A stretch of 64,000 nt of DNA from Acutalibacteraceae bacterium (GCA_045586265.1 JAZMZY010000091.1:5921-69920), one strand, 5' to 3'. Shown: positions 1,857 to 19,732, counted from the first letter of the stretch. The notes: generated by a model not told the origin, from the sequence alone. Numbers and translations are program-made.

Positions 1857-3419
1857 ATGAATAAGAAAACTTATCCGATTCTTAAAAATGACTTTGTAGG
1901 TTTTATTTTTACTATAATTTCAACCTTTATAACCATAAGAATAGGCGCTCTGAATGGCTTTAATTTTGGTTTTACCATTAGTGGATTTGCACTTATTGCA
2001 ACAGGGCTTATTTACCTTTCTTCAAAGGAATGTAAAGATAAAGCTTTCTGCGCTTTTTTGACAATCGGTGCATTTGTGCTTTGTTGCAGTTATTCAATAA
2101 CAAACGACGGACTTAGTAAGTTTTTAACATTCCTTTATCTTATTTTTATTTGTGCAACTTTATTCATAACAATATCAGGTAACAACGATGCCGAAAGTGG
2201 TACATATAGCTATGTTTTAAACACAGTTCAAAAATCTGTTTACTCAGTTTTTGATAATTTTATGTTACCATTCAGAAGTCTTAAGGAATCTGCAAAACTT
2301 GAAAAATCTAAAAACTCTTTTCATCTTTTAATCGGACTTGGAATATCTATTCCTATTCTTTGTATTATTCTTCCCCTTCTCACAACATCTGATATTGCAT
2401 TCAGCACTTTAATTTCATCTTTATTTAAAAATACTTTCGTTTTAATTGGTTCAATATTTGCAACGATAGTTGTCACACCTGTTGTTTTTGCATTCTTATT
2501 CTCGATGAAGAAAAAGGATTTGACGGAAATTGTTGCTCCAACAATACCTGATAAGGTTTCAAAGGTTATTCTTAACACAATTTTAAGCGTAACTGCAGTT
2601 GTTTATTTAGCTTATCTTGTTTCTCAATTAGCTTACATTACAAAAGCTTTCGCTTTTCTTCTCCCCGATGATTACAGCGCAGCAGAATTTGCAAGAAGCG
2701 GATTTTTCCAGATGGGTGTTATTGCATTCATCAACTTCGTTATTCTTTTCTTATGCTCAACACTGGTTAAGAAAACTGAAAGCAAGAAAATCCCCGATTC
2801 AACAAAATCTCTTCTCATTTTCCTCTGCCTTTTCACAGTTTTTTATATTTCAACCGCATTTGTGAAAATGATGAAATATATCTCTCTTTATGGTCTTACA
2901 AGATTAAGAGTCCTCACAAGCGTTTTTATGCTTATGCTGGCGGTTATTTTCATGATAATTCTTTTAAGACTTATCTTCACAAGACTTAAATACATAAAAG
3001 CAATTATTCTCGTTTGCACAATTACAATGATTAGCGTTTCAGTAATTGACATAAACACAGTTATTGCAAACTATAACTATAATGCTTATAAACAAGGCAA
3101 AATTAATATTGACGTTGAGCAAATTGGTTCATTGGGCGCAAGTGGTCTCCCGGTTCTTGTTAAGCTTTCGGAAGAAAAACCTCTTGAAGAGAATTATGAT
3201 GTTATATGCGAAATTGAAAATAATTCTTATGAAATTTATAATAACGGCTTTTATTCTATTTACGATATAGAAGAAATTGATTTAAAACAAACAAATATCT
3301 TCCAGAAAAATTATGTTTTGAAACAAGGTAAAATTGCATTAAGCAAATTCGTTGAAAACAACCCTGACTTTGATTACAATAAATTTTATGAAGAATACGA
3401 AGAAGATGGTTGGTATTAA
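1857..3419 (+). CDS. Large polytopic membrane protein (DUF4153/DUF4173-like)
   Basis: 520 aa with more than 10 predicted TM helices. C-terminal segment NYNYNAYKQGKINIDVEQIGSLGASGLPVLVKL resembles that family. The start is 2 nt after the HTH stop. Confidence 0.7.
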   Translation: MNKKTYPILKNDFVGFIFTIISTFITIRIGALNGFNFGFTISGFALIATGLIYLSSKECKDKAFCAFLTIGAFVLCCSYSITNDGLSKFLTFLYLIFICATLFITISGNNDAESGTYSYVLNTVQKSVYSVFDNFMLPFRSLKESAKLEKSKNSFHLLIGLGISIPILCIILPLLTTSDIAFSTLISSLFKNTFVLIGSIFATIVVTPVVFAFLFSMKKKDLTEIVAPTIPDKVSKVILNTILSVTAVVYLAYLVSQLAYITKAFAFLLPDDYSAAEFARSGFFQMGVIAFINFVILFLCSTLVKKTESKKIPDSTKSLLIFLCLFTVFYISTAFVKMMKYISLYGLTRLRVLTSVFMLMLAVIFMIILLRLIFTRLKYIKAIILVCTITMISVSVIDINTVIANYNYNAYKQGKINIDVEQIGSLGASGLPVLVKLSEEKPLEENYDVICEIENNSYEIYNNGFYSIYDIEEIDLKQTNIFQKNYVLKQGKIALSKFVENNPDFDYNKFYEEYEEDGWY

Positions 3420-3432
3420 GTGAGGTACCGAA

Positions 3433-4227
3433 ATGGATTTTCATTTAAAAGGGATTGCAATTTGTATTGTGATTTTTATATTACAATTCATATTCTGTAA
3501 AAAAATAAAAAACAAGTTTATTCGATTGGTACCCTTGTTTATAGCCTTAATTTGCTTATTATTTTCTTTCTTGTTGTACCTTGGTTTTCCACCGATTGAA
3601 ACCACGCCTTTCAGCAGTAACGAATTCACAGGTGCACTTGCTATGGTATGGTGCGGATGTGGAATTTCAGGTGGGTTGTTGGGTATTTTCTTTGCAAACT
3701 CACGAAAAATATTAGCAAAATTAAAAATCAAACAAAAACTAAAAAATCTGAAAAATATAAGACCTATAAATAGAAAGTTAATTATAATTATAGTTATATT
3801 GATTTTTGTTGAAGCAACCGCATTCAGGTGTTATTTCGGTACTCTTAATCCATACATATCAGACCTGAATATTGTTTATACGCCAACTAAACCTGCTTTC
3901 AAATTTTATCGTTGGTATTGGATTGATATATATGACTATTCTGTATTCCGATTAAGTAACAAAGAGGAAAAAATCATCATTCAGGAAGCTGAAGACGGAA
4001 AATGGAGTGAGTTGACCCCATATCATATTAATAAACTTGATCATTATGATTATTGTGATGAGTTTTTAGATTATAGCTACAGATACCATAAATGCTACAT
4101 TTGTATATACGACGAACAGAACAATCAAATCGTCACAGATTCTGACAATGACATTCCTCCCAATAAGATTATATTTTTATATGATACGCAAACCAACAAA
4201 TATTATTGTGTGTTTCAAACAATGTAA
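3433..4227 (+). CDS. Hypothetical membrane protein (N-terminal TM helices plus a Tyr/Asp-rich C-terminal domain)
   Basis: 264 aa ORF that is last in the co-directional run and is followed by a terminator. I recognise no family. Confidence 0.6.
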   Translation: MDFHLKGIAICIVIFILQFIFCKKIKNKFIRLVPLFIALICLLFSFLLYLGFPPIETTPFSSNEFTGALAMVWCGCGISGGLLGIFFANSRKILAKLKIKQKLKNLKNIRPINRKLIIIIVILIFVEATAFRCYFGTLNPYISDLNIVYTPTKPAFKFYRWYWIDIYDYSVFRLSNKEEKIIIQEAEDGKWSELTPYHINKLDHYDYCDEFLDYSYRYHKCYICIYDEQNNQIVTDSDNDIPPNKIIFLYDTQTNKYYCVFQTM

Positions 4228-4240
4228 AACACTTGCCTTT

Positions 4241-4279
4241 TTACTGCTTTCATTGTATAGTGAAAGCAGTAAATTTTTT
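4241..4279 (+). terminator. Intrinsic terminator
   Basis: Stem TTACTGCTTTCA/TGAAAGCAGTAA, an 8 nt loop, then ATTTTTT. Confidence 0.7.
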
Positions 4280-4290
4280 ATGGTGATTTT

Positions 4291-5601
4291 ATGAAACCGA
4301 ATATTATATTTTATTTTTCTGACCAACAGCGTTGGGATACGCTTAATAGTGAAATAATGCCGAATGTTTGGGAATTAGGTGAAGAAGGAACTATCTTTGA
4401 AAATTCTTTCACCTGTCAGCCTGTTTGCGGACCTGCCCGTGCTTGCTTGCAAACCGGGCAATATGCAACGGAAAACGGTTGCTTCTGGAACGGTATTCCA
4501 CTGCCCGAAAACACAAAAACAATGGCAGATTATTTCAACGAAAACGGCTATGATACTGCTTATATCGGCAAATGGCATCTTGCCTCCGACAGAGCAAAGG
4601 GCTTTGGTTTTCATTGCGAAAAAACCGCCGTGCCAAAAGAAAAGCAAGGCGGTTATAAATATTGGAGAGCGGCAGATGTTCTTGAATTCACATCTCACGG
4701 CTATGATGGTTATGTATTTGATGAAGATGGTAACCAAATTGATTTTACAGGCTACAGAGCAGACTGCATAAATGATTTTGCGGTTGAATATGTTAATAAT
4801 CATAATAGCGAAAAGCCGTTTTTTATGTTCATTTCTCAGCTTGAACCCCATCATCAGAATGACAGAGGTCATTTTGAAGGTCCTGTTGAAGCAATTGAAA
4901 AATACAAGGATTACCCCATTCCCGAGGATTTAACATTCCTTAAGGGCGATTATAAAGATGAATACCCCGACTACATTGCCGCAATAAACCGACTTGATGA
5001 AAATGTTGGTAAATTGGTTGATGCGCTGAAAGAAAAGGGTATTTATGATAATACTGTTATTATTTACACAAGCGACCACGGTTGCCATTTCAAAACCCGA
5101 AACTTTGAATACAAACGTTCCTGCCACGAATCAAGCATTCATACTCCCCTTATTTTCGGCGGCGGAGCGATTAATAAAACAGATAGCAAAGATTGTTTAG
5201 TCAGCCTTATTGACTTACCGCCTACAATTTTAAGTCTTGCAGGAATTACTGTTCCCGATAGCTATTCCGGTAATGTTTTACCCATCAATGATATTGAAGC
5301 ACCTGAAAGAGATTGCGTTTTCGTGCAGATAAGTGAATCCCATATCGGCAGATGCGTCAGAACAAAGAATTGGAAATACTCTGCAAAGGCAATAGGCTCA
5401 GGTTGGCACAAATCAAAGGCTGTTCATTATTTTGATGATTTTCTTTATGATTTGAAAAACGACCCTTGCGAGAAAAACAACCTTGTTAATGACGAAAACT
5501 ATTCAAAGGTTTTGCAACAAATGAGAACTTTGCTTTCAAAAGAAATGGTAAATTCAGGTGAGAAAAAGCCGAGGTTTCATAAGGCTATAAAAATGAAATA
5601 A
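4291..5601 (+). CDS. Cys-type sulfatase (arylsulfatase family)
   Basis: 436 aa. N-terminal NIIFYFSDQQRWDT, formylglycine signature C-G-P-A-R in FTCQPVCGPARACLQTGQY, plus GKWHL and YTSDHG motifs. Confidence 0.9.
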   Translation: MKPNIIFYFSDQQRWDTLNSEIMPNVWELGEEGTIFENSFTCQPVCGPARACLQTGQYATENGCFWNGIPLPENTKTMADYFNENGYDTAYIGKWHLASDRAKGFGFHCEKTAVPKEKQGGYKYWRAADVLEFTSHGYDGYVFDEDGNQIDFTGYRADCINDFAVEYVNNHNSEKPFFMFISQLEPHHQNDRGHFEGPVEAIEKYKDYPIPEDLTFLKGDYKDEYPDYIAAINRLDENVGKLVDALKEKGIYDNTVIIYTSDHGCHFKTRNFEYKRSCHESSIHTPLIFGGGAINKTDSKDCLVSLIDLPPTILSLAGITVPDSYSGNVLPINDIEAPERDCVFVQISESHIGRCVRTKNWKYSAKAIGSGWHKSKAVHYFDDFLYDLKNDPCEKNNLVNDENYSKVLQQMRTLLSKEMVNSGEKKPRFHKAIKMK

Positions 5602-11684: not shown

Positions 11685-11822
11685 AAAATCACTCCTTTCA
11701 ACCAAATTATAAGATTTTAATAGTCTATTTTCAATTCCATCAGACAAATTAACAGTCGAAATAAAGTAGAACTTTTTTAAAGATAAAAAATTATTGACAG
11801 AAATATTGTTATATGCTATTTT

Positions 11823-11858
11823 ATACATAGAAACTCTATGTATCGTAATTCTATGTAT
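11823..11858 (+). promoter_or_regulatory. Candidate PadR operator: a palindrome plus an extra direct half-site
   Basis: ATACATAG-AAACT-CTATGTAT is a perfect 8/8 inverted repeat at 11823-11843. A third CTATGTAT copy lies at 11851-11858, directly upstream of the padR SD GGAGGAG. Confidence 0.4.
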
Positions 11859-11871
11859 CGGAGGAGTTATT

Positions 11872-12219
11872 ATGAATATAAAAAAAGAACTTACAAAAGG
11901 CAGCAGTGCGTTACTTGTTTTATCAGTTTTAGAAAACGAAGAAATGTACGGCTATCAGATTATCAAAGAAATCGAAAAAAGAAGCGAGGATGTTTTTTCT
12001 TTCAAAGAGGGCACCCTCTACCCTATTCTACACGCTTTTGAAAAGGATAACTATGTTGAATCCTATTGGCAAGAAAGCAATCAAGGAAGAAAGAGAAAAT
12101 ATTACAGAATTACCGACAAAGGCAGAAAGCTTCTTGTTAAATCGAAGGAAGAATGGGATGCTTATTCAACCGCTGTAAAGAAGGTTATAAAACCACAGAC
12201 TTCCCCTGTTACTACTTGA
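11872..12219 (+). CDS. PadR-family transcriptional regulator
   Basis: 115 aa from MNIKKELTKGSSALLVLSVLENEEMYGYQIIKEIEKRSEDVFSFKEGTLYPILHAFEKDNYVESYW...RKYYRITDKGRKLL. Confidence 0.9.
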   Translation: MNIKKELTKGSSALLVLSVLENEEMYGYQIIKEIEKRSEDVFSFKEGTLYPILHAFEKDNYVESYWQESNQGRKRKYYRITDKGRKLLVKSKEEWDAYSTAVKKVIKPQTSPVTT

Positions 12220-12233
12220 TTTGAGGTGGTTTT

Positions 12234-13274
12234 ATGGAAAAACGAATTCAAGAATTTATTGCGGATTACATACCCAAACGCATAACAAAAGAAACAAGGT
12301 ACAAGCTCCAATATGAGCTTGAAAGCCATATATACGACAGATTAGATTATTACAAGGAAATCGGTTATTCAGAAGAAGAGAGTCTTGAAAAAGCATTAAA
12401 GGATTTTGGTGATGATAAGGAAACTAAGGAACAGATAAAAAAGGAATTGGGTGAAATTCACAAACCCGATACATTGGCAGACTTATTTACGTTTGGAATC
12501 CCTTTTGTTGTTATTTTAACGTTATCTTTCTATATTTTTTCCCCTGCGCTATACAGAACACATGAGGTTAAATACCTTGCTATAGTACCAATGCTTATGT
12601 GGGTTGTTATGCTTTTTTTTAAACACTCAAAAAAAGTACACCATATTTTAAAAAACATTATTGCATTTATTTTGGTCGTGCCATACATTACAGTTGTATT
12701 TCCTGCATTTTATATTTGTCAAACCACCTTACATACAACGTTTGAAAAAAATCATAGCATAAAAAGTTATCTCAACTTTATGATTGATGAAGAAACGAAG
12801 GAAAGTTACAATTACTTGTTACCACATCCTGACGATATTGGAAAACCTATTGATGCAAATTGTTTTGTAGTTAACTTATACGCATCTATGAGCGACCCAA
12901 TTTATTATACCTGGATTTTTAGATACACACCCGAAGAATATATAGAGTTAAAAGAGAAATTCAACAAAGACTTCGAGTATATGAAAACTTATTCAGACTA
13001 TGATTGGGAAAAAGATATTAATATAACACGACAATGCAGTTTTACTGTATATGACTTCCATTTTAAAACAATTAAGGTTCCTGAATACGAATTCGGTAAT
13101 GAAACTACTGATAATTTTGATTACTGGGCATTAATCGGTACAAATGACGAAACTTGTGAAATCGCTTTTATATATCTTACTCCCGAACGATATTCGCCAA
13201 CTTTTGATGAAGCCTTCATAAAAGAAGATTGCTGTTGGAAATATTTTTACTATAAGCATTTAATCTATAATTGA
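12234..13274 (+). CDS. PadR-associated membrane protein, paralog 1 (N-terminal helical DUF1700/HAAS-like domain, TM segments, uncharacterised C-terminal domain)
   Basis: 346 aa starting MEKRIQEFIADYIPKRITKETRYKLQYELESHIYDRLDYYKEIGYSEEESLEKALKDFG. SD GAGGTGG. It is paralogous to the next gene. Confidence 0.75.
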   Translation: MEKRIQEFIADYIPKRITKETRYKLQYELESHIYDRLDYYKEIGYSEEESLEKALKDFGDDKETKEQIKKELGEIHKPDTLADLFTFGIPFVVILTLSFYIFSPALYRTHEVKYLAIVPMLMWVVMLFFKHSKKVHHILKNIIAFILVVPYITVVFPAFYICQTTLHTTFEKNHSIKSYLNFMIDEETKESYNYLLPHPDDIGKPIDANCFVVNLYASMSDPIYYTWIFRYTPEEYIELKEKFNKDFEYMKTYSDYDWEKDINITRQCSFTVYDFHFKTIKVPEYEFGNETTDNFDYWALIGTNDETCEIAFIYLTPERYSPTFDEAFIKEDCCWKYFYYKHLIYN

Positions 13275-13283
13275 GGAATATTT

Positions 13284-14303
13284 ATGGAAGAAAGAATTTC
13301 GGAATTTATTGCGGATTACCTACCCAAACGTATTACAAAGGAAACAAGATATAAGCTCCAATATGAACTTGAAAACCATATTTATGACAGAATTGATTAT
13401 TACAGAGAAATTGGTTACACCGAAGAAGAAAGCCTTGAAAAAGCACTAAAGGATTTTGGGAATGATGAGGAAACTAAGGAACAGATAAAAAAGGAATTAG
13501 AAAACATACATATCCCCTGGTCTTTGGCTAATTTTTTCGCTAAATCTATTCCGATAACTGTTGCAATAATTCTTATTGGCGGAACATTATTACATATTTT
13601 CTTATTTCAATTTGCCAACATAAGAAATATTGTAATAATACCATTTATTATGTGGTTAATAATAATCGCACTAAAAAGGTCTATAAAAATACATCACATA
13701 ATTAAATCTATCATTGCTGTTATTCTGGTTGTTCCACATTTTATATTTTCTCTGATTGGGAATTTTTTATGGCTCCCTACTTACCAATTAAAACCATTTA
13801 AAGAAAACGTTATCACATTTTATAGCGAATGTTGTGAAATTGATGAGTTAAGTAATTATTTACCGTCACCAAGCGAAATTGGCGAACCAATTGATGCAAA
13901 TTTTTTCTCAATAGGTGAAGATACAATTTTCGGTAATGACCAACGTTCAACCTGGGTTTTTAAATATTCACCATCAGAATATAAAGAACTAAAAAACAAG
14001 TTTAATAAAGACATAGAATATATGAAAACATATTCAGAACACGGTTATTTTATAGATGATGAATACCAAGATGAAGATATAACATATAAATGCGACTTTT
14101 CTTTATATAAATTTAATTTCAGAACCATAGAAAAAGTTTATGATGCTGATGAATTTTACGACAGTTGGTATTTAATCGGTACTAACGATGAGACACATGA
14201 GATTGCCTTTATTGTGTCAATGGACAGTTCCCCAACCTTTGATGATTATTTTATAAAAGAATCTTGTGGTTGGCGGTATTTCTACTTTTTAACAAAGCTC
14301 TGA
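13284..14303 (+). CDS. PadR-associated membrane protein, paralog 2
   Basis: 339 aa starting MEERISEFIADYLPKRITKETRYKLQYELENHIYDRIDYYREIGYTEEESLEKALKDFG. Same architecture as 12234-13274. Confidence 0.75.
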   Translation: MEERISEFIADYLPKRITKETRYKLQYELENHIYDRIDYYREIGYTEEESLEKALKDFGNDEETKEQIKKELENIHIPWSLANFFAKSIPITVAIILIGGTLLHIFLFQFANIRNIVIIPFIMWLIIIALKRSIKIHHIIKSIIAVILVVPHFIFSLIGNFLWLPTYQLKPFKENVITFYSECCEIDELSNYLPSPSEIGEPIDANFFSIGEDTIFGNDQRSTWVFKYSPSEYKELKNKFNKDIEYMKTYSEHGYFIDDEYQDEDITYKCDFSLYKFNFRTIEKVYDADEFYDSWYLIGTNDETHEIAFIVSMDSSPTFDDYFIKESCGWRYFYFLTKL

Positions 14304-14309
14304 TACAAC

Positions 14310-14349
14310 AAAACAACTGACTGTATTTTCGTACAGTCAGTTGTTTTTT
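14310..14349. terminator. Bidirectional intrinsic terminator
   Basis: Stem AACAACTGACTGTA/TACAGTCAGTTGTT with a 6 nt loop, an A-run upstream and a T-run downstream. It lies between convergent genes. Confidence 0.75.
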
Positions 14350-14764
14350 ACATTTCTTTCCTCATCCAAGCATGAGGCTTATTTTGCTCGTAATCTATTT
14401 CACCTTGTTGGGTGAAGCCACATTTTTCATAAAAAGGCTTTGCGTGGTATTGGGAATGAAGAATTATTGCTTTTCCGTTCTTTTCTTTAACAATTTCCTC
14501 TACCCTTTTAAGCATTTCTCTGCCAAGAGCTTTGCCTCTGTATTCCTTTAAAACACAAAGTCTGCCGAACATATAGGTTTCTTTGTCTTCTTTCAGATAA
14601 AACCTACAGGTTGCTATTGGCTTTTCATTTTCGTACATAACAAGGTGGGTTGCAACACTATCAAATTCGTCAACCTCATCAACAAAGCCCTGCTCATCAA
14701 CAAAAACAGTTATTCTCAAAGCCAAAGCATCTTTGGGAAGAGAATCAAAAGCTTTTATAATCAT
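14348..14764 (-). CDS. GNAT-family N-acetyltransferase
   Basis: 138 aa with CVLKEYRGKALGREMLKRVEE and HAKPFYEKCGF (acetyl-CoA binding motif region). Its ATG directly abuts the stop of the upstream gene (TAAATG). Confidence 0.85.
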   Translation of the reverse strand: MIIKAFDSLPKDALALRITVFVDEQGFVDEVDEFDSVATHLVMYENEKPIATCRFYLKEDKETYMFGRLCVLKEYRGKALGREMLKRVEEIVKEKNGKAIILHSQYHAKPFYEKCGFTQQGEIDYEQNKPHAWMRKEM

Positions 14765-17356
14765 TTAATCACCTTTTCCTAAAAGCAAATCAACAAGCTC
14801 CCCAACCTTTTGGGGTCTTGGTTTATTTATTTTGAAAAGCAAATCATCAATATTCTTTTCAACTGCATCAATTTCTCGTTTAAAATCCTGAGCAGATACA
14901 CGAAGAACACCAAAACGAACCGCAGAAAGCTGAATAAGATTATCTGATGTTACAACGCGCACATTCTCGTTTTTACCAATATCGCTTATAAGCTTCTCAA
15001 TATAGTTATCGCCAAGCTCTCTTTCTTTGGTATAAACTACATGAATATTGTTATAATTAAACCTTTGCCCATTGTTACCCGATACCTTATAGGCATCAAA
15101 AACAACAATTGTTTCGCATTTTGTGAAAGCGGAATAATTGCAAAGAATATCTAAAAGCTTATCACGGGCAAAACCTAAATTATCGTTTGCAATTTCCTTC
15201 AGCTCGTCCCAAGCAAAGATTACATTATAACCGTCAACAATAACATATTTCTTGCGGATTTCCGTATTATATTCCGTACTAACGGGCTTTGAAGGTGTTT
15301 TATTATGGCTATATCTGTAAAAGGGGTGCTTGTCCTCCCCGAATTCACGGGTCATTATAGCTTCAAGCTCTTTATCGTCTATATGGAAATTACGCTTATT
15401 GAGATTGACCTCGTAAGGTGTTTTTTCTTGCTCCAAACAAGAGTCAATGTGCATATATTCAAAAACCTTGTCCCATTTCACATTAAAGCCTGCACCGTGA
15501 GCGCAGAAAACTGAATCGGGAGTATTCTCCAAATCACTTTCGGGAGAATAATTTGAATTTTCAATTATTTCATCTGCATTATGACAAACATCATAACCGC
15601 ACACCTCAAGGAACAAACGACCTTTACCGCTTGTATAGGCTGCAACCTCGGAAGCATAGCCATTCAGAGTTGTAACAGGTGCTTTACCCGTTAAAATACT
15701 TATTCCGTTCATATCCTCGGGAGAATCAATTGTACCGTTTTTCATTCTTATATCATTGATGGCTCTACCAATTTGCTCCGTTGGAACTTCAAGGCGGAAG
15801 CTATAATAAGGCTCTAAGAGAACGGATTCAGCCTGCATAAGACCTTGTCTCACGGCTCTGTATGTAGATTGCCTGAAATCGCCACCCTCGGTATGCTTCA
15901 AATGGGCTCTGCCTGCGGCAAGAGTGATTTTAATGTCTGTTATCGGTGAACCTGTAAGGACGCCCAGATGCTCTTTCTCGCTTAAATGCCCCATAATCAA
16001 ATTCTGCCAATTGCGGCTTAATGAATCCTCGCTACACTTTGAGGATAACTGAATTCCGCTCCCTCTAGGCAATGGTTCAATTATTAAATGCACCTCTGCA
16101 TAGTGCCTTAAGGGTTCATAATGACCTACGCCCTCAACCTTGTTTTCAATTGTTTCCTTATAAAGCACCTTACCGCTGTCAATTTCAACATTAACATTAA
16201 ATCGTGTTAAAATAATACTTTTGAGAATTTCTGTTTGCACATCGCCCATTAAGGAAACATAAATTTCCTGCAAATATGTGTTCCAGGTAATATGCAACTG
16301 TGGGTCTTCAGCTTCAAGCTCTTTTAATTTCGGGAAAATGGTTTTCGGGTCGCAGTCCTTGGGAAGAACAATCCTATAATTCATAACAGGTTCTAAAAAC
16401 GCTTTTCCAAAGGATTTTTCGAAACCTAAGCCATCACCTGTATTAACTGAATTGAGTCCTGTAAGAGCGTATATACCGCCACTCCGGGCTTCTTCTACTG
16501 TTGTGAATTTTTCACCCGAATAAACTCTTATATTATTTACTTTTTCATTTTTATCATTTATAGCTACTGTATCTTTAACCTTTAAAGAACCACCGGTTAC
16601 TTTTATATGGGTGATTCTTTCACCCTTGGAATCGTGGGTTATTTTATAAACCTTTGCGCCAAATTCTACAGGAAAATTATTAACAGAAATATATTTTTCA
16701 AGACCACAAACAAACTCGTCAACTCCATCCCCTTTTAAGCCTGAGCCGAAATAACAAGGGGTGCATTTTCGGGCTTTAATAAGCTCTCTTATTTTCTCTT
16801 TTTCAATTAATCCACTTTCTAAATATGTTTCTAAAGCTTGTTCATCGCACATTGAAACATTTTCAAAGAAACAATCAGATTTGTCATTTGAAAAATCAAT
16901 GCAATTATCGGAACAAAGCTCTTTCAAATCTGCAATTAGCGCTTCCTTTGAAAGCCTTGCATAATCCATTTTTGTAACAAAAATAAAAGTTGGTATGTTA
17001 TATGCGCAAAGAAGCTTCCACAATGTTCTTGTGTGAGCCTGAACACCATCAGTACCACTTATAACAAGGATTGCATAGTCAAGGATTTTAAGGCTTCTTT
17101 CCGTTTCTGCAGAAAAGTCAACATGACCCGGTGTATCAAGAAGGTTAATCTCTAATTCCCCGATATTGAAAACCGACTGACCTGCAAAAATTGTAATGCC
17201 TCTTTCACGCTCAAGGGTATGGGTATCTAAAGCCGTGTCACCATTGTCAACACGACCTAATTTTCTTATTTTGCCCGATTTATAAAGGAGCGTTTCCGCA
17301 AGAGTTGTTTTACCTGCATCAACATGGGCAATGATACCAACTACAACCTTCTTCAT
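14765..17356 (-). CDS. Translational GTPase (TetM/EF-G-like) fused to a C-terminal Rae1/YacP-type NYN ribonuclease domain
   Basis: From MKKVVVGIIAHVDAGKTTLAETLLY the ORF carries DTPGH and TKMD and has EF-G-like length and colinearity. C-terminal KYVIVDGYNVIFAWDELK...VVFDAYKV...VVYTKERELGDNYIEKL...VRVVTSDNLIQ matches my recollection of B. subtilis YacP. The ORF-track start at 17392 lies inside the clpE terminator stem, so 17356 is preferred. Confidence 0.85.
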   Translation of the reverse strand: MKKVVVGIIAHVDAGKTTLAETLLYKSGKIRKLGRVDNGDTALDTHTLERERGITIFAGQSVFNIGELEINLLDTPGHVDFSAETERSLKILDYAILVISGTDGVQAHTRTLWKLLCAYNIPTFIFVTKMDYARLSKEALIADLKELCSDNCIDFSNDKSDCFFENVSMCDEQALETYLESGLIEKEKIRELIKARKCTPCYFGSGLKGDGVDEFVCGLEKYISVNNFPVEFGAKVYKITHDSKGERITHIKVTGGSLKVKDTVAINDKNEKVNNIRVYSGEKFTTVEEARSGGIYALTGLNSVNTGDGLGFEKSFGKAFLEPVMNYRIVLPKDCDPKTIFPKLKELEAEDPQLHITWNTYLQEIYVSLMGDVQTEILKSIILTRFNVNVEIDSGKVLYKETIENKVEGVGHYEPLRHYAEVHLIIEPLPRGSGIQLSSKCSEDSLSRNWQNLIMGHLSEKEHLGVLTGSPITDIKITLAAGRAHLKHTEGGDFRQSTYRAVRQGLMQAESVLLEPYYSFRLEVPTEQIGRAINDIRMKNGTIDSPEDMNGISILTGKAPVTTLNGYASEVAAYTSGKGRLFLEVCGYDVCHNADEIIENSNYSPESDLENTPDSVFCAHGAGFNVKWDKVFEYMHIDSCLEQEKTPYEVNLNKRNFHIDDKELEAIMTREFGEDKHPFYRYSHNKTPSKPVSTEYNTEIRKKYVIVDGYNVIFAWDELKEIANDNLGFARDKLLDILCNYSAFTKCETIVVFDAYKVSGNNGQRFNYNNIHVVYTKERELGDNYIEKLISDIGKNENVRVVTSDNLIQLSAVRFGVLRVSAQDFKREIDAVEKNIDDLLFKINKPRPQKVGELVDLLLGKGD

Positions 17357-17370
17357 ACAATACCCATTAA

Positions 17371-17408
17371 TTTTAAAACACCGACAGAACATCGACTGCT
17401 CTGTCGGT
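17371..17408 (-). terminator. Intrinsic terminator after clpE
   Basis: Minus strand stem ACCGACAGA/TCTGTCGGT with an 11 nt loop, then GTTTT. It begins 15 nt after the clpE stop and ends about 15 nt before the next start codon. Confidence 0.7.
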
Positions 17409-17422
17409 ATTTAATTTATTAT

Positions 17423-19732
17423 TTATGATTTAAAATCAACTGAAATTTTGCCGTCAACGGCAGTAACTGTGATTTCATTTACAAGTGCGCCTGCATTATC
17501 AATAAGAATATTAGCGATTTTATCTTCAACTTCTTTTCTTATTGTTCTTCTGATATCACGAGCACCTCTGCCTCCGTCCTCGGACAAATCAGCGATAATT
17601 TCATACACACCATCACCGACAACAAGGTCAATGCCCTTATCTTTTAGTGGTGATTTAAGCTCGCCTAAAAGAACCTCTGCAATCTTAACAAGCTCTTCCT
17701 TTCCGAGAGTGTTGAAGGTAACAATTTCATCAACTCTGCCTAAGAACTCGGGTCTTAAGAACTCCTTGAGAGCCTTCATTGTTTTATCCTTAGATGCCTG
17801 ATTCTTATCACGATTGAAGCCGAGAGCATTTTCAGAAATATGGCTACCCGCATTAGAGGTCATAATAATAACAGTATTTTCAAAGCTTACTGTTCTGCCC
17901 TGAGCATCGTTGGTTTTGCCTTCATCAAGAATCTGAAGAAGGATATTAAGAACATCAGGATGAGCCTTCTCAATTTCGTCAAAAAGAACAACTGAATAAG
18001 GCTTTCTTCTTACCTTTTCTGTAAGCTGACCTGCTTCATCATAGCCAACATAACCGGGAGGTGAGCCAATAAGACGGGAAACACTGTGCTTCTCCATAAA
18101 CTCGCTCATATCAAGGCGAATGAGAGTTTCGGGTGTTTCAAAAAGCTCATTAGCAAGCTGCTTTACAAGCTCAGTTTTACCAACGCCTGTGGGACCAACA
18201 AAGATAAAGGACGCAGGCTTTCTTACTGCGGAAATCTGCACTCTGCTTCGTCTGATAGCGGCGGCAAGGACCTCAATAGCTTCATCCTGACCGATAATTC
18301 TCTGTTTAAGCTTACTTTCAAGATTTGAAAGCTTTCTCATATCGTTTTCAATGATTTTTGATGTTGGAATACCTGTCCAGAGATTAATAACTCTTGCGAT
18401 ATCTTCTTCAGTAACATCGTTATCATCGGCTTTGATTTTAACCTGAGCAGCTTCCTTTTCGATAGCAATTTTTTCTGCCTTAAGATTTGAAATTGCTTCA
18501 TAATCAGGACCTTCCTCTGCAGTTGTATCAAGAAGCTCTTCCTCTCGCTCATTCAAATCCTCAAGCTTAGTCATAAGCTTCTGATAGTCGCTTATAGCTA
18601 CATTACGGAGATTCGCGCAAGTACAAGCTTCATCAAGAAGGTCAATTGCTTTATCAGGTAAAAATCTGTCATTAATATATCTTTCTGAAAGGTGCACTGC
18701 TCTGTAAACAAGTGCATCAGAAATTTTTACCTTATGGAAATCCTCATAGTATTCTTTGATACCAACAAGCATTTTAAAGCATTCTTCAACTGATGGCTCT
18801 TCAACCTTGACGGGCTGAAAACGTCTTTCAAGAGCGGCATCCTTTTCAATATGCTTTCTGTATTCATTAAAGGTTGTGGCACCGATAACCTGAATCTGAC
18901 CTCTTGAAAGAGCGGGTTTCAGGATGTTTGCGGCATTCATAGAGCCTTCCGCATCACCTGTGCCCACAAGGTTATGAACCTCGTCAATAAAGAGGATTAT
19001 ATTCCCCTCTTCCTTAACCTCATCAACAAGACCCTTGATTCTGCTTTCAAACTGACCTCGGAACTGAGTACCTGCAACAAGTGAGGTTAAATCAAGAAGA
19101 TGAATTTCCTTATCTGCAATTCTTGCAGGAACATCCCCTGCTGCAATTTTAAGAGCAAGCCCCTCTGCAATTGCGGTTTTACCTACACCGGGTTCACCTA
19201 TAAGGCAAGGGTTGTTTTTGGTTCTTCTGCAAAGAATCTGTGTTACTCTGTAAATCTCGGTTTCTCTGCCGATAATTCTGTCAATTTTACCGTCTCTTGC
19301 TCTTGCGGTAAGGTCGGTACAATAAGAATTCAGGAATTTTCTTTTTGTTTTATGTTTTTTCTTTTTCTTCTTAGCCTTATTATCTTCTTTTTCATTCTCA
19401 TCTTCATCTTCTGTAACTTCATTTTCAGCAGATGAATTATTACCCATCGGGTTATTATTGAGGAAATTCTGCATAAAAGGCATTGTTCCTGCGCCACCAA
19501 GCTGAAAATCATCAAGATTTTCCATCATATCACCGAACTGCTCGCTTACAGCATCGATATCGTCCTCAGTAATGCCCATACTCTGCATCATCTGTTTGAT
19601 GGGACCGATATTAAGCTCGGAAGCACATTTTATACAATAACCCTCCTGAGTGGTTTTATCACCATCAACGCGTGAAACGAAAATCACTGCAGGACGTTTT
19701 TTGCATTTACTGCATATCATTTTATTATTCAT
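17423..19732 (-). CDS. clpE: AAA+ Clp ATPase with an N-terminal zinc ribbon (ClpE-type)
   Basis: 769 aa. N-terminal CSKCKKRP...CIKC, two Walker A motifs ([16 protein letters not shown]), no Clp-N repeat, and an acidic/basic low-complexity linker. Confidence 0.85.

Follow-up and report, generated by a model that had tools for sequence, protein, structure and literature searches.

The window analyzed here is a 64,000-nucleotide (nt) stretch of the genome of an Acutalibacteraceae bacterium (GCA_045586265.1, JAZMZY010000091.1:5921-69920), and the feature under study, at positions 14765-17408, is a minus-strand gene coding for a TetM-like translational GTPase followed, in the same polypeptide, by a YacP/Rae1-type NYN ribonuclease domain. 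Its product is a member of the Clostridial Tet-like GTPase-NYN_YacP family, with the same architecture and taxon as the published members and no structural difference from them. The initial annotation of this DNA implied that the fusion was novel, but it had been reported before, first in Tet proteins of ten Clostridiales species that acquired a YacP-like NYN RNase domain (Atkinson 2015, BMC Genomics, PMC4342817) and then as "TetM-NYN_YacP fusion proteins" of some Clostridia, with their role left open (Matelska et al. 2017, Nucleic Acids Research, PMC5499597). Both papers catalogued the architecture, with tetracycline resistance or rRNA cleavage as the roles discussed. What is new here is not the architecture itself but that the nuclease is a modular part, present in some members of the GTPase subfamily and absent from others, and that the fusion is linked to a ylmH-like gene; to the catalogues of 2015 and 2017 we add the breadth of the family, its nuclease-less sister form, the anatomy of the tether, and this linkage. 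GTP-gated delivery of a nuclease to the ribosome is still the most economical reading of the protein. In its full form, in which stalled or collided ribosomes receive a tethered Rae1-type endonuclease that cleaves the mRNA and so leads to rescue, we give this reading about an even chance of being right.

The minus-strand open reading frame (ORF) spans 14765..17392 and 875 amino acids (aa) when counted from its first ATG (17392), which falls in the loop of the upstream terminator hairpin. As the N termini of close homologs read MKK/MDK..., the true start is the ATG at 17356, which gives a complete coding sequence of 863 aa at 14765..17356 with its TAA stop at 14765-14767, the single uninterrupted frame that had been proposed. 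An exact-sequence look-up of the protein matched no record. We compared it with a family alignment of 75 diverged full-length members, 38 to 51% identical to the query, and with an AlphaFold2 (AF2) model built on that diverse alignment (predicted local distance difference test [pLDDT], 91.1; predicted template modeling score, 0.74). This model superseded a shallow run with 26 close homologs, in which the pLDDT was 68.7 and aa 601-701 were uninformative. Pfam domains, the predicted structure, and the homologs all confirm that the GTPase and the nuclease are covalently fused.

The GTPase body contains the five domains of the EF-G/EF2 family in the EF-G order and fold, with every Pfam match above its gathering cutoff. 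On the minus strand, these are the G domain with its G' insertion (aa 4-223, 16688..17347; GTP_EFTU, E 6e-48), domain II (aa 233-310, 16427..16660; EF-G_D2, AF2 pLDDT >90), domain III (aa 322-392, 16181..16393; EFG_III), domain IV (aa 395-509, 15830..16174; EFG_IV), and domain V (aa 512-593, 15578..15823; EFG_C). The GTPase motifs are intact, as had been noted for G1, G3, and G4: AHVDAGKTT (G1), RGITI (G2), DTPGH (G3), TKMD (G4), and GSGLK (G5). K16, T55, D74, the catalytic histidine H78, K129, and D131 do not vary in any of the 75 members. The TKMD form of G4 is a minority variant, as 65 members have N at position 128, with T and S in 5 each. In Foldseek searches, the body matched EF-G, EF-G2, archaeal EF2 (aEF2), and TetM (E ~1e-53, template modeling score up to 0.68). 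TetM and TetO (3J9Y and 4V6V) are its closest characterized GTPase relatives, with the same five domains including G' (E ~1e-83). They differ from the window protein, which in addition has a C-terminal module, a tether, and a nuclease, is chromosomal and off mobile elements, and carries a different domain-IV tip. The five-domain fold and the G motifs are also common to EF-G, but structural identity is only ~23-26%, the domain-IV loops differ, and the NCBIfam EF-G scores are far under their cutoffs. The domain-IV tip is the most characteristic region of the body: its family-specific loops (VEGVGHYEPLRHYAEVHL and GRAHLKHTEGGDFRQ in the window protein) correspond to two strongly conserved motifs, VEGVGH[FY]EPLRHYAEVHL and GRAHLKHTEGGDFRQATYRAVRQG, which are 70 to 100% conserved across the family and differ from the aligned TetM positions.

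Directly after domain V comes a C-terminal module proper to this GTPase subfamily (aa 594-643, 15428..15577), delimited by conservation and modeled by AF2 at a pLDDT of 93-95 as a helix, a beta-hairpin (DSVFCAHGAGFNVKW), and a second helix. The same module is found in nuclease-less relatives, whose ends come just past it. We considered a zinc site in this region (C591/H592/C618/H620/H636/C640), but broad conservation is limited to C591, C618, H620, and H636 and does not extend to C640; from these conserved Cys and His residues, a link of the module to zinc or another metal is possible.

The tether (aa 644-702, 15251..15427) consists of a disordered stretch, a conserved helix at 661-672 (DDKELEAIMTREFG), and a disordered basic stretch. 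AF2 pLDDT falls below 50 at 644-660 and 676-698, and the second of these parts has 27% K+R and a median net charge of +5 over the 75 members, among which the distance from the module to the NYN domain varies from 59 to 191 aa. The region between GTPase and nuclease had been described as a linker of about 90 aa, which holds for the disordered parts, approximately 644-660 and 676-698, but not for the whole, as residues 594-643 form the folded module and 661-672 the conserved helix.

The YacP/Rae1-type NYN domain (aa 703-845, 14822..15250) matches Pfam PF05991 at aa 705-845 with an E value of 8e-45 and a score of 153.2 bits against a gathering cutoff of 24.6, and it is followed by a poorly conserved C-terminal tail with a short helix (aa 846-863, 14768..14821; alignment and AF2). 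The protein's tail aligns to the crystal sequence of Bacillus subtilis YacP/Rae1 (5MQ8/5MQ9) with an E value of 4e-23, and D708, D754, D783, and D805 fall on Rae1 D7, D53, D81, and D104 (numbered from the alignment). The D708-GYN motif, N711, D754, D783, and D805 are invariant in all 75 members, so the assignment of the C-terminal domain and the retention of its acidic residues, both claimed from the sequence, hold. The YacP family has been defined by an Asp-GYN motif, at least four Asp residues, and two C-terminal helices (PMC5499597), and all of these are present in the fusion, the helices being modeled by AF2 at 822-844 and 851-858. With the motifs of both halves invariant among members only 38 to 51% identical, the alignment indicates that both enzymes are under selection. 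The NYN domain thus shares with B. subtilis Rae1 the NYN_YacP fold, D-GYN, the four catalytic Asp residues, and the C-terminal helices, at ~38% identity over ~120-145 aa. The two differ in their setting, since Rae1 is a standalone protein of ~170-180 aa coded in the cysS-mrnC-rlmB-yacP operon that finds stalled ribosomes unaided, whereas the window's NYN is the C terminus of an 863-aa GTPase. The fusion is thus not a single-domain protein following rlmB in a cysS-mrnC-rlmB-yacP(-sigH) cluster, and within the 64-kb window we found no homologs of CysS, MrnC, RlmB, or SigH and no second NYN domain.

The architecture is widespread in Clostridia. When the last 270 aa were scored against 1.84 billion representative proteins, 367 clusters at the 50% identity level matched with E <1e-30. 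Of the top 150, roughly half are full length (820-1156 aa) and most of the others are fragment-like, while short matches that could pass for standalone NYN proteins come from contigs of 737-1214 bp and are probably fragments. In a survey of 185,579 species genomes, at least 598 loci contained the domain-IV motifs of the family, and all of the best 80 of them, which we inspected, code for the fusion. These 80 loci belong to Acutalibacteraceae, Oscillospiraceae, Ruminococcaceae, and Lachnospiraceae (Blautia, Dorea, Anaerobutyricum, and Marvinbryantia), as well as to Intestinimonas, Flavonifractor, Dysosmobacter, Anaerotruncus, and metagenome-assembled genomes (MAGs) labeled Faecalibacterium; Monoglobus also has the fusion, and its M. 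pectinilyticus protein (WP_320690501.1) bears the RefSeq name "translation factor GTPase family protein." Closest of all loci is L001, from an Acutalibacteraceae MAG, at 96% amino-acid and 83.7% nucleotide identity. The family is chromosomal and appears to have spread vertically over hundreds of species. Matches in the plasmid collection sit on records that also contain secA, nusG, rpoB/C, and ribosomal proteins, that is, on chromosome pieces. On the side, we noted that many PLSDB "plasmids" of Monoglobus, Subdoligranulum, Agathobacter, and Clostridioides difficile appear to be mislabeled chromosome fragments, with core genes (secA, nusG, rpoB/C, valS, cysS, and tuf) aboard NZ_OY725736.1, NZ_OY725740.1, OY7258xx, NZ_CP143948.1, and NZ_CP1496xx-CP1497xx. 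In the phage collection, two unannotated "Bacteriophage sp." records from human feces (MT835514.1:17010-17810 and MT835563.1:7203-7964) code for the module, tether, and NYN domain at ~43% identity and 86-94% coverage, and these are probably bacterial contigs misbinned as phage.

The same GTPase also exists without the nuclease. A search of plasmid records with tblastn identified LSL_RS10690 on the Ligilactobacillus salivarius megaplasmid pMP118 (L089:3246-5180), a 644-aa protein lacking the NYN domain. Over aa 1-636 of the window protein it shows 50% identity, domain-IV motifs and module included, and it ends nine residues further on. Subdoligranulum variabile codes for another nuclease-less version, of 658 aa (L090:3192-5168), with the terminus ...DSVFCSHGAGYPVKWNEAPAQMHIQLK*. 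The matches to this protein (P0287-P0406) include over 100 clusters that measure 636-690 aa and lack PF05991, from Caproiciproducens, Massiliimalia, Maliibacterium, Provencibacterium, and many Oscillospiraceae MAGs. This sister group shares the domain-IV motifs and the module (GYxPCHN...DSVFCxHGAG...MH) with the fusion and differs in ending a few residues past the module, with neither tether nor NYN domain. Since these relatives keep residues 594-643, the module is part of the GTPase, which must itself have an independent function. P0291 is ~98% identical to the nuclease-less S. variabile protein up to ...DSVFCSHGAGY and then continues into tether and NYN domain, and P0289, a mosaic of 896 aa, is near-identical up to approximately aa 515 and then has a different, NYN-bearing C-terminal half. 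Near-identical alleles with (P0291) and without (P0287) the tail indicate that the nuclease has been gained, lost, or swapped by recombination. The view of the GTPase as a mere delivery vehicle, which had been implied at first, does not survive the abundance of the same subfamily without a nuclease. As a separate observation, the nuclease-less gene of pMP118 is the divergent neighbor of a second rpsN (S14) gene and of a "putative metal homeostasis protein" (L089:2662-3058, 3246-5180).

Clustering of the neighbors at the 80 loci revealed only one gene at a fixed position, directly downstream of the fusion and on the same strand. Its 248-aa product contains YlmH_RBD and S4 domains, with the Sll1252/YlmH family as the best NCBIfam match. 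By tblastn, this ylmH-like gene is present in 16 of the 80 loci (L007, L008, L011, L013, L014, L016, L019, L020, L021, L023, L024, L026, L027, L031, L051, and L074), usually 0-150 nt past the fusion stop, with a 14-nt overlap between both ORFs in L016. The outer neighbors differ (a two-component system and an M20 peptidase in L016; a GNAT protein, an LPG-synthase-C protein, and SpoVAD in L021), and the 16 linked fusions are 48-80% identical to one another. YlmH is an RqcP-like ribosome quality control (RQC) factor of B. subtilis (PMC11317155), so the linkage ties the fusion to ribosome rescue by guilt by association, which is suggestive but not decisive.

Delivery of the nuclease to blocked ribosomes builds on what has been reported for Rae1, a translation-dependent mRNA endonuclease that acts at stalled or collided ribosomes and feeds transfer-messenger RNA (tmRNA) rescue (PMC12407103, PMC13622287); a 2026 preprint describes Rae1-dependent tmRNA tagging on collided ribosomes (PMC13622287). 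In the mechanism that we propose, the GTP form of the body would dock at the factor-binding site of a blocked ribosome, either stalled with an empty A site or collided, and the domain-IV tip would sense the state of the decoding center. Docking would keep the tethered nuclease at a high local concentration, and the mRNA would be cut on or near that ribosome; if the analogy with Rae1 holds, the cleavage site would be the ribosome edge or the mRNA between ribosomes, not the inside of the A site. GTP hydrolysis would then release the factor, and the truncated mRNA would enter tmRNA or RQC rescue. Ribosome binding, the mRNA substrate, the specificity for stalled ribosomes, and the link to a rescue pathway are all predictions. 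The proposed logic is that of Escherichia coli SmrB and yeast Cue2, to which the Rae1 papers refer, namely, that a nuclease brought to a stalled or collided ribosome cuts the mRNA for rescue. The parallel would be one of functional analogy, as SMR and NYN are unrelated folds and neither SmrB nor Cue2 is fused to a translational GTPase.

The initial annotation derived the delivery model from a shared site, with both Rae1 and EF-G/TetM-type GTPases acting at the A site. This rationale is outdated, as the cut made by Rae1 has since been reported to lie 12 nt upstream of the A-site codon, where the tail of the stalled or collided ribosome is located. With the cut site so far from the factor-binding site, the geometry needs the tether or action on a neighboring collided ribosome. 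In the first case, the 60-190-aa tether might let the NYN domain reach the openings of the mRNA channel. In the second, the GTPase might bind the trailing collided ribosome, the natural substrate for an EF-G-type factor, with its mRNA entry turned toward the tail of the stalled ribosome.

Several points weigh against delivery to stalled or collided ribosomes. B. subtilis Rae1 acts without a fused GTPase and cuts at the trailing edge, far from the factor site of the same ribosome, and AF2 gives no defined docking of the NYN domain against the body. Judging by the abundance of the GTPase subfamily without a nuclease, the nuclease is dispensable for the role of the GTPase. The ylmH linkage is present in only 20% of the loci, mostly within one sequence cluster. 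A full-text literature search found no experimental study of any family member, and likewise no paper connecting Rae1 with the GTPase-NYN fusion. Last, genomes with the fusion may also retain a standalone Rae1 of their own. In C. difficile the canonical cysS-mrnC-rlmB-yacP cluster is intact, and in the Agathobacter, Monoglobus, and Subdoligranulum isolate records of the plasmid collection we did not find the canonical cluster beside nusG or cysS. The sole NYN match in the PLSDB pieces of Monoglobus, an assembly of uncertain completeness, is the fusion itself, and S. variabile TSDC17.2-1.1, also of uncertain completeness, has no NYN match, though six of six tested core markers are present. We also observed that in Pusillibacter faecalis pMM59_01 (L087:5965-8114) mrnC, the gene of Mini-III, abuts an NFACT/RqcH-type gene with one shared base and without rlmB-yacP, the genes that come after mrnC in C. 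difficile and Bacilli; this 504-kb "plasmid" also carries valS and other core genes and is chromid-like.

A bolder extension would make the Tet-like GTPase subfamily a dedicated sensor of stalled or collided ribosomes with Rae1-type nucleases as its effector, joined in cis in many Clostridia. Where the GTPase lacks the nuclease, as in some Clostridia and in lactobacilli, the effector would act in trans or be without a role. We hold this to be a tentative proposal, with clearly less chance of being correct than delivery by the fusion itself. If true, the fusion would be a sensor-effector "Rosetta stone," pointing to a GTPase-gated mRNA-cleavage branch of bacterial rescue alongside YlmH/RQC and tmRNA, and the position of Rae1 on the ribosome would become predictable. 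How Rae1 finds ribosomes is under revision in papers of 2025-2026, and a fusion with a predictable docking site offers a direct handle on that question. The family is found in abundant Clostridia of the human and animal gut, including Agathobacter, Blautia, Dorea, Faecalibacterium-labeled MAGs, Intestinimonas, and Monoglobus.

Among the alternatives to mRNA cleavage at stalled or collided ribosomes, the one that survives best, although we consider it improbable, is a role in rRNA or tRNA processing or in ribosome turnover, in which the NYN domain of the docked GTPase would cut rRNA (for example, near the decoding center, the 16S 3' end, or the sarcin-ricin loop) for maturation, inactivation, or degradation. 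The original prediction for YacP-type NYN domains, drawn from the cysS-mrnC-rlmB-yacP operon, was indeed rRNA/tRNA maturation (PMC5499597), and a domain IV placed in the decoding center would hold the tail near rRNA. However, there is no rRNA-processing operon around the fusion in the window or at the 80 loci, and ylmH, the neighbor retained in one clade, speaks for the rescue of stalled translation and not for maturation.

That the fusion is a toxin-like or defense effector, shutting down translation under phage or stress through GTP-gated cleavage of ribosome-bound RNA, seems to us very unlikely. Translation shutdown had been put forward when the sequence was first read, nuclease fusions with sensor NTPases are common among defense systems, and the Agathobacter rectalis gene adjoins a BrnT/CopG toxin-antitoxin pair. 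However, the fusion matches no PADLOC family and has no conserved partner or immunity gene, its neighborhoods being variable and mostly housekeeping. The composition is native and the family is broad and under strong purifying selection, while the weak Shine-Dalgarno (SD) sequence and the terminator-proximal start fit low constitutive expression better than an inducible island.

A tetracycline ribosomal protection protein with the nuclease as an accessory to resistance, as suggested in the 2015 survey, has if anything a slightly smaller chance. The best NCBIfam match is tet_protect and the best PDB match is TetM (3J9Y, E 5e-83), the protein was placed in the Tet subfamily in 2015 (PMC4342817), and some database records name the TetM/TetW/TetO/TetS family. 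None of the marks of a TetM/TetO-class protein, namely, a score at the curated level, a Tet-type loop III, and mobile carriage with patchy distribution, was found, however. The tet_protect score (NF012153) is 446.7 bits against a cutoff of 775, with the allele-specific Tet models also far under theirs, and the alignment to TetM ends at aa 591 with a structural-alignment identity of 29%. According to the published TetM/TetO structures, summarized in PMC4342817, the domain-IV loops of Tet proteins contact and dislodge the drug, and the loop III of TetM, ...GLYYSPVSTPADFR (YYSPVS), is replaced by the invariant family motif GRAHLKHTEGGDFR. The gene is also chromosomal, with native GC content, housekeeping neighbors, and apparently vertical spread over hundreds of species, and its "plasmid" matches are chromosome pieces with secA, nusG, and rpoB. 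Among the records labeled as TetM/TetW/TetO/TetS resistance proteins are the A. rectalis protein WP_306784676.1 (933 aa, L082:5120-7921), P0023, and P0102, whose scores miss the curated family cutoff by a wide margin and whose domain IV has no Tet-type loop; such mislabeled members are likely false positives and can inflate resistome counts.

A sequencing or assembly error fusing two neighboring genes has nothing in its favor and a negligible probability, because the architecture is unchanged in every one of the 120 closest database clusters (65-93% identity, 848-883 aa), which excludes a frameshift or assembly artifact, and it is likewise continuous in at least 75 diverged full-length clusters, 80 independent genome loci, and the isolate genomes of M. 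pectinilyticus and A. rectalis.

In the window, the fusion is the penultimate gene of a co-directional housekeeping run that comprises ruvC, ruvA, ruvB, glmM, a methyltransferase, two energy-coupling factor (ECF) ATPases, ECF-T, truA, an unknown gene, CvpA-like and PgsA-like genes, a Clp ATPase, the fusion, and a GNAT acetyltransferase. The GC content of the fusion gene (0.36-0.40) is like that of its neighbors in the run and falls to 0.29-0.33 past the GNAT gene. Neighbors and native GC thus bear out the claim of a housekeeping, non-island setting.

The gene upstream of the fusion (17423..19732, minus strand) codes for a Clp/Hsp100 AAA+ ATPase with an N-terminal zinc-ribbon-like CxxC...CxxC motif. 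The name clpE given to it is reasonable from this ClpE-like motif, but the NCBIfam matches, of ClpB/ClpA type, stay below the equivalog cutoffs. The protein also has a long acidic/lysine-rich insert, and its second AAA+ domain matches PADLOC PDC-M37B and DolB, most likely through generic AAA+ similarity. After the Clp gene there is an intrinsic-terminator-like hairpin (17376..17412, minus strand; free energy, -24.1 kcal/mol; z, -5.66), followed by UGUUUU and lying 19 nt before the ATG of the fusion. The 66-nt gap between both genes contains no minus-strand promoter-like match, and the SD position of the fusion gene has only GGG, so the earlier description of this junction (a terminator, no room for a promoter, and a weak SD) was accurate. 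Candidate internal promoters before the NYN part (hexamers at 15381-15354 and 15293-15266) were rejected, with 17 matches against 18.9 in shuffled sequence.

At the other end, the ATG of the 138-aa GNAT acetyltransferase (14348..14764, minus strand) abuts the TAA of the fusion, as had been described, and its own SD, AAGGTGA, lies inside the last codons of the fusion. Read-through from the Clp gene and translational coupling to the GNAT gene had been taken as meaningful. Among the 80 loci, the Clp gene is upstream of the fusion only in L001 and L002, and a GNAT homolog is downstream in none, with a single weak match (L003) upstream. Nucleotide collinearity with L001 runs from 23999 to 14774, ending at the 3' end of the fusion gene. 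As neither linkage is conserved, read-through and coupling are features of this genome and not of the family.

A perfect 17-bp hairpin flanked by A and T runs (14310..14347), identified in a terminator scan, lies between the GNAT gene and a convergent plus-strand gene ending at 14303 and is likely the bidirectional end of the transcription unit. Beyond it, the plus strand of the window codes at 11794-14303 for a PadR-family regulator and then for a tandem pair of paralogous membrane proteins (~340 aa), both carrying a "permease prefix domain 1," at a GC content of 0.29-0.33. The block from the GNAT gene onward, which is outside the collinearity with L001, is probably a variable accessory segment.

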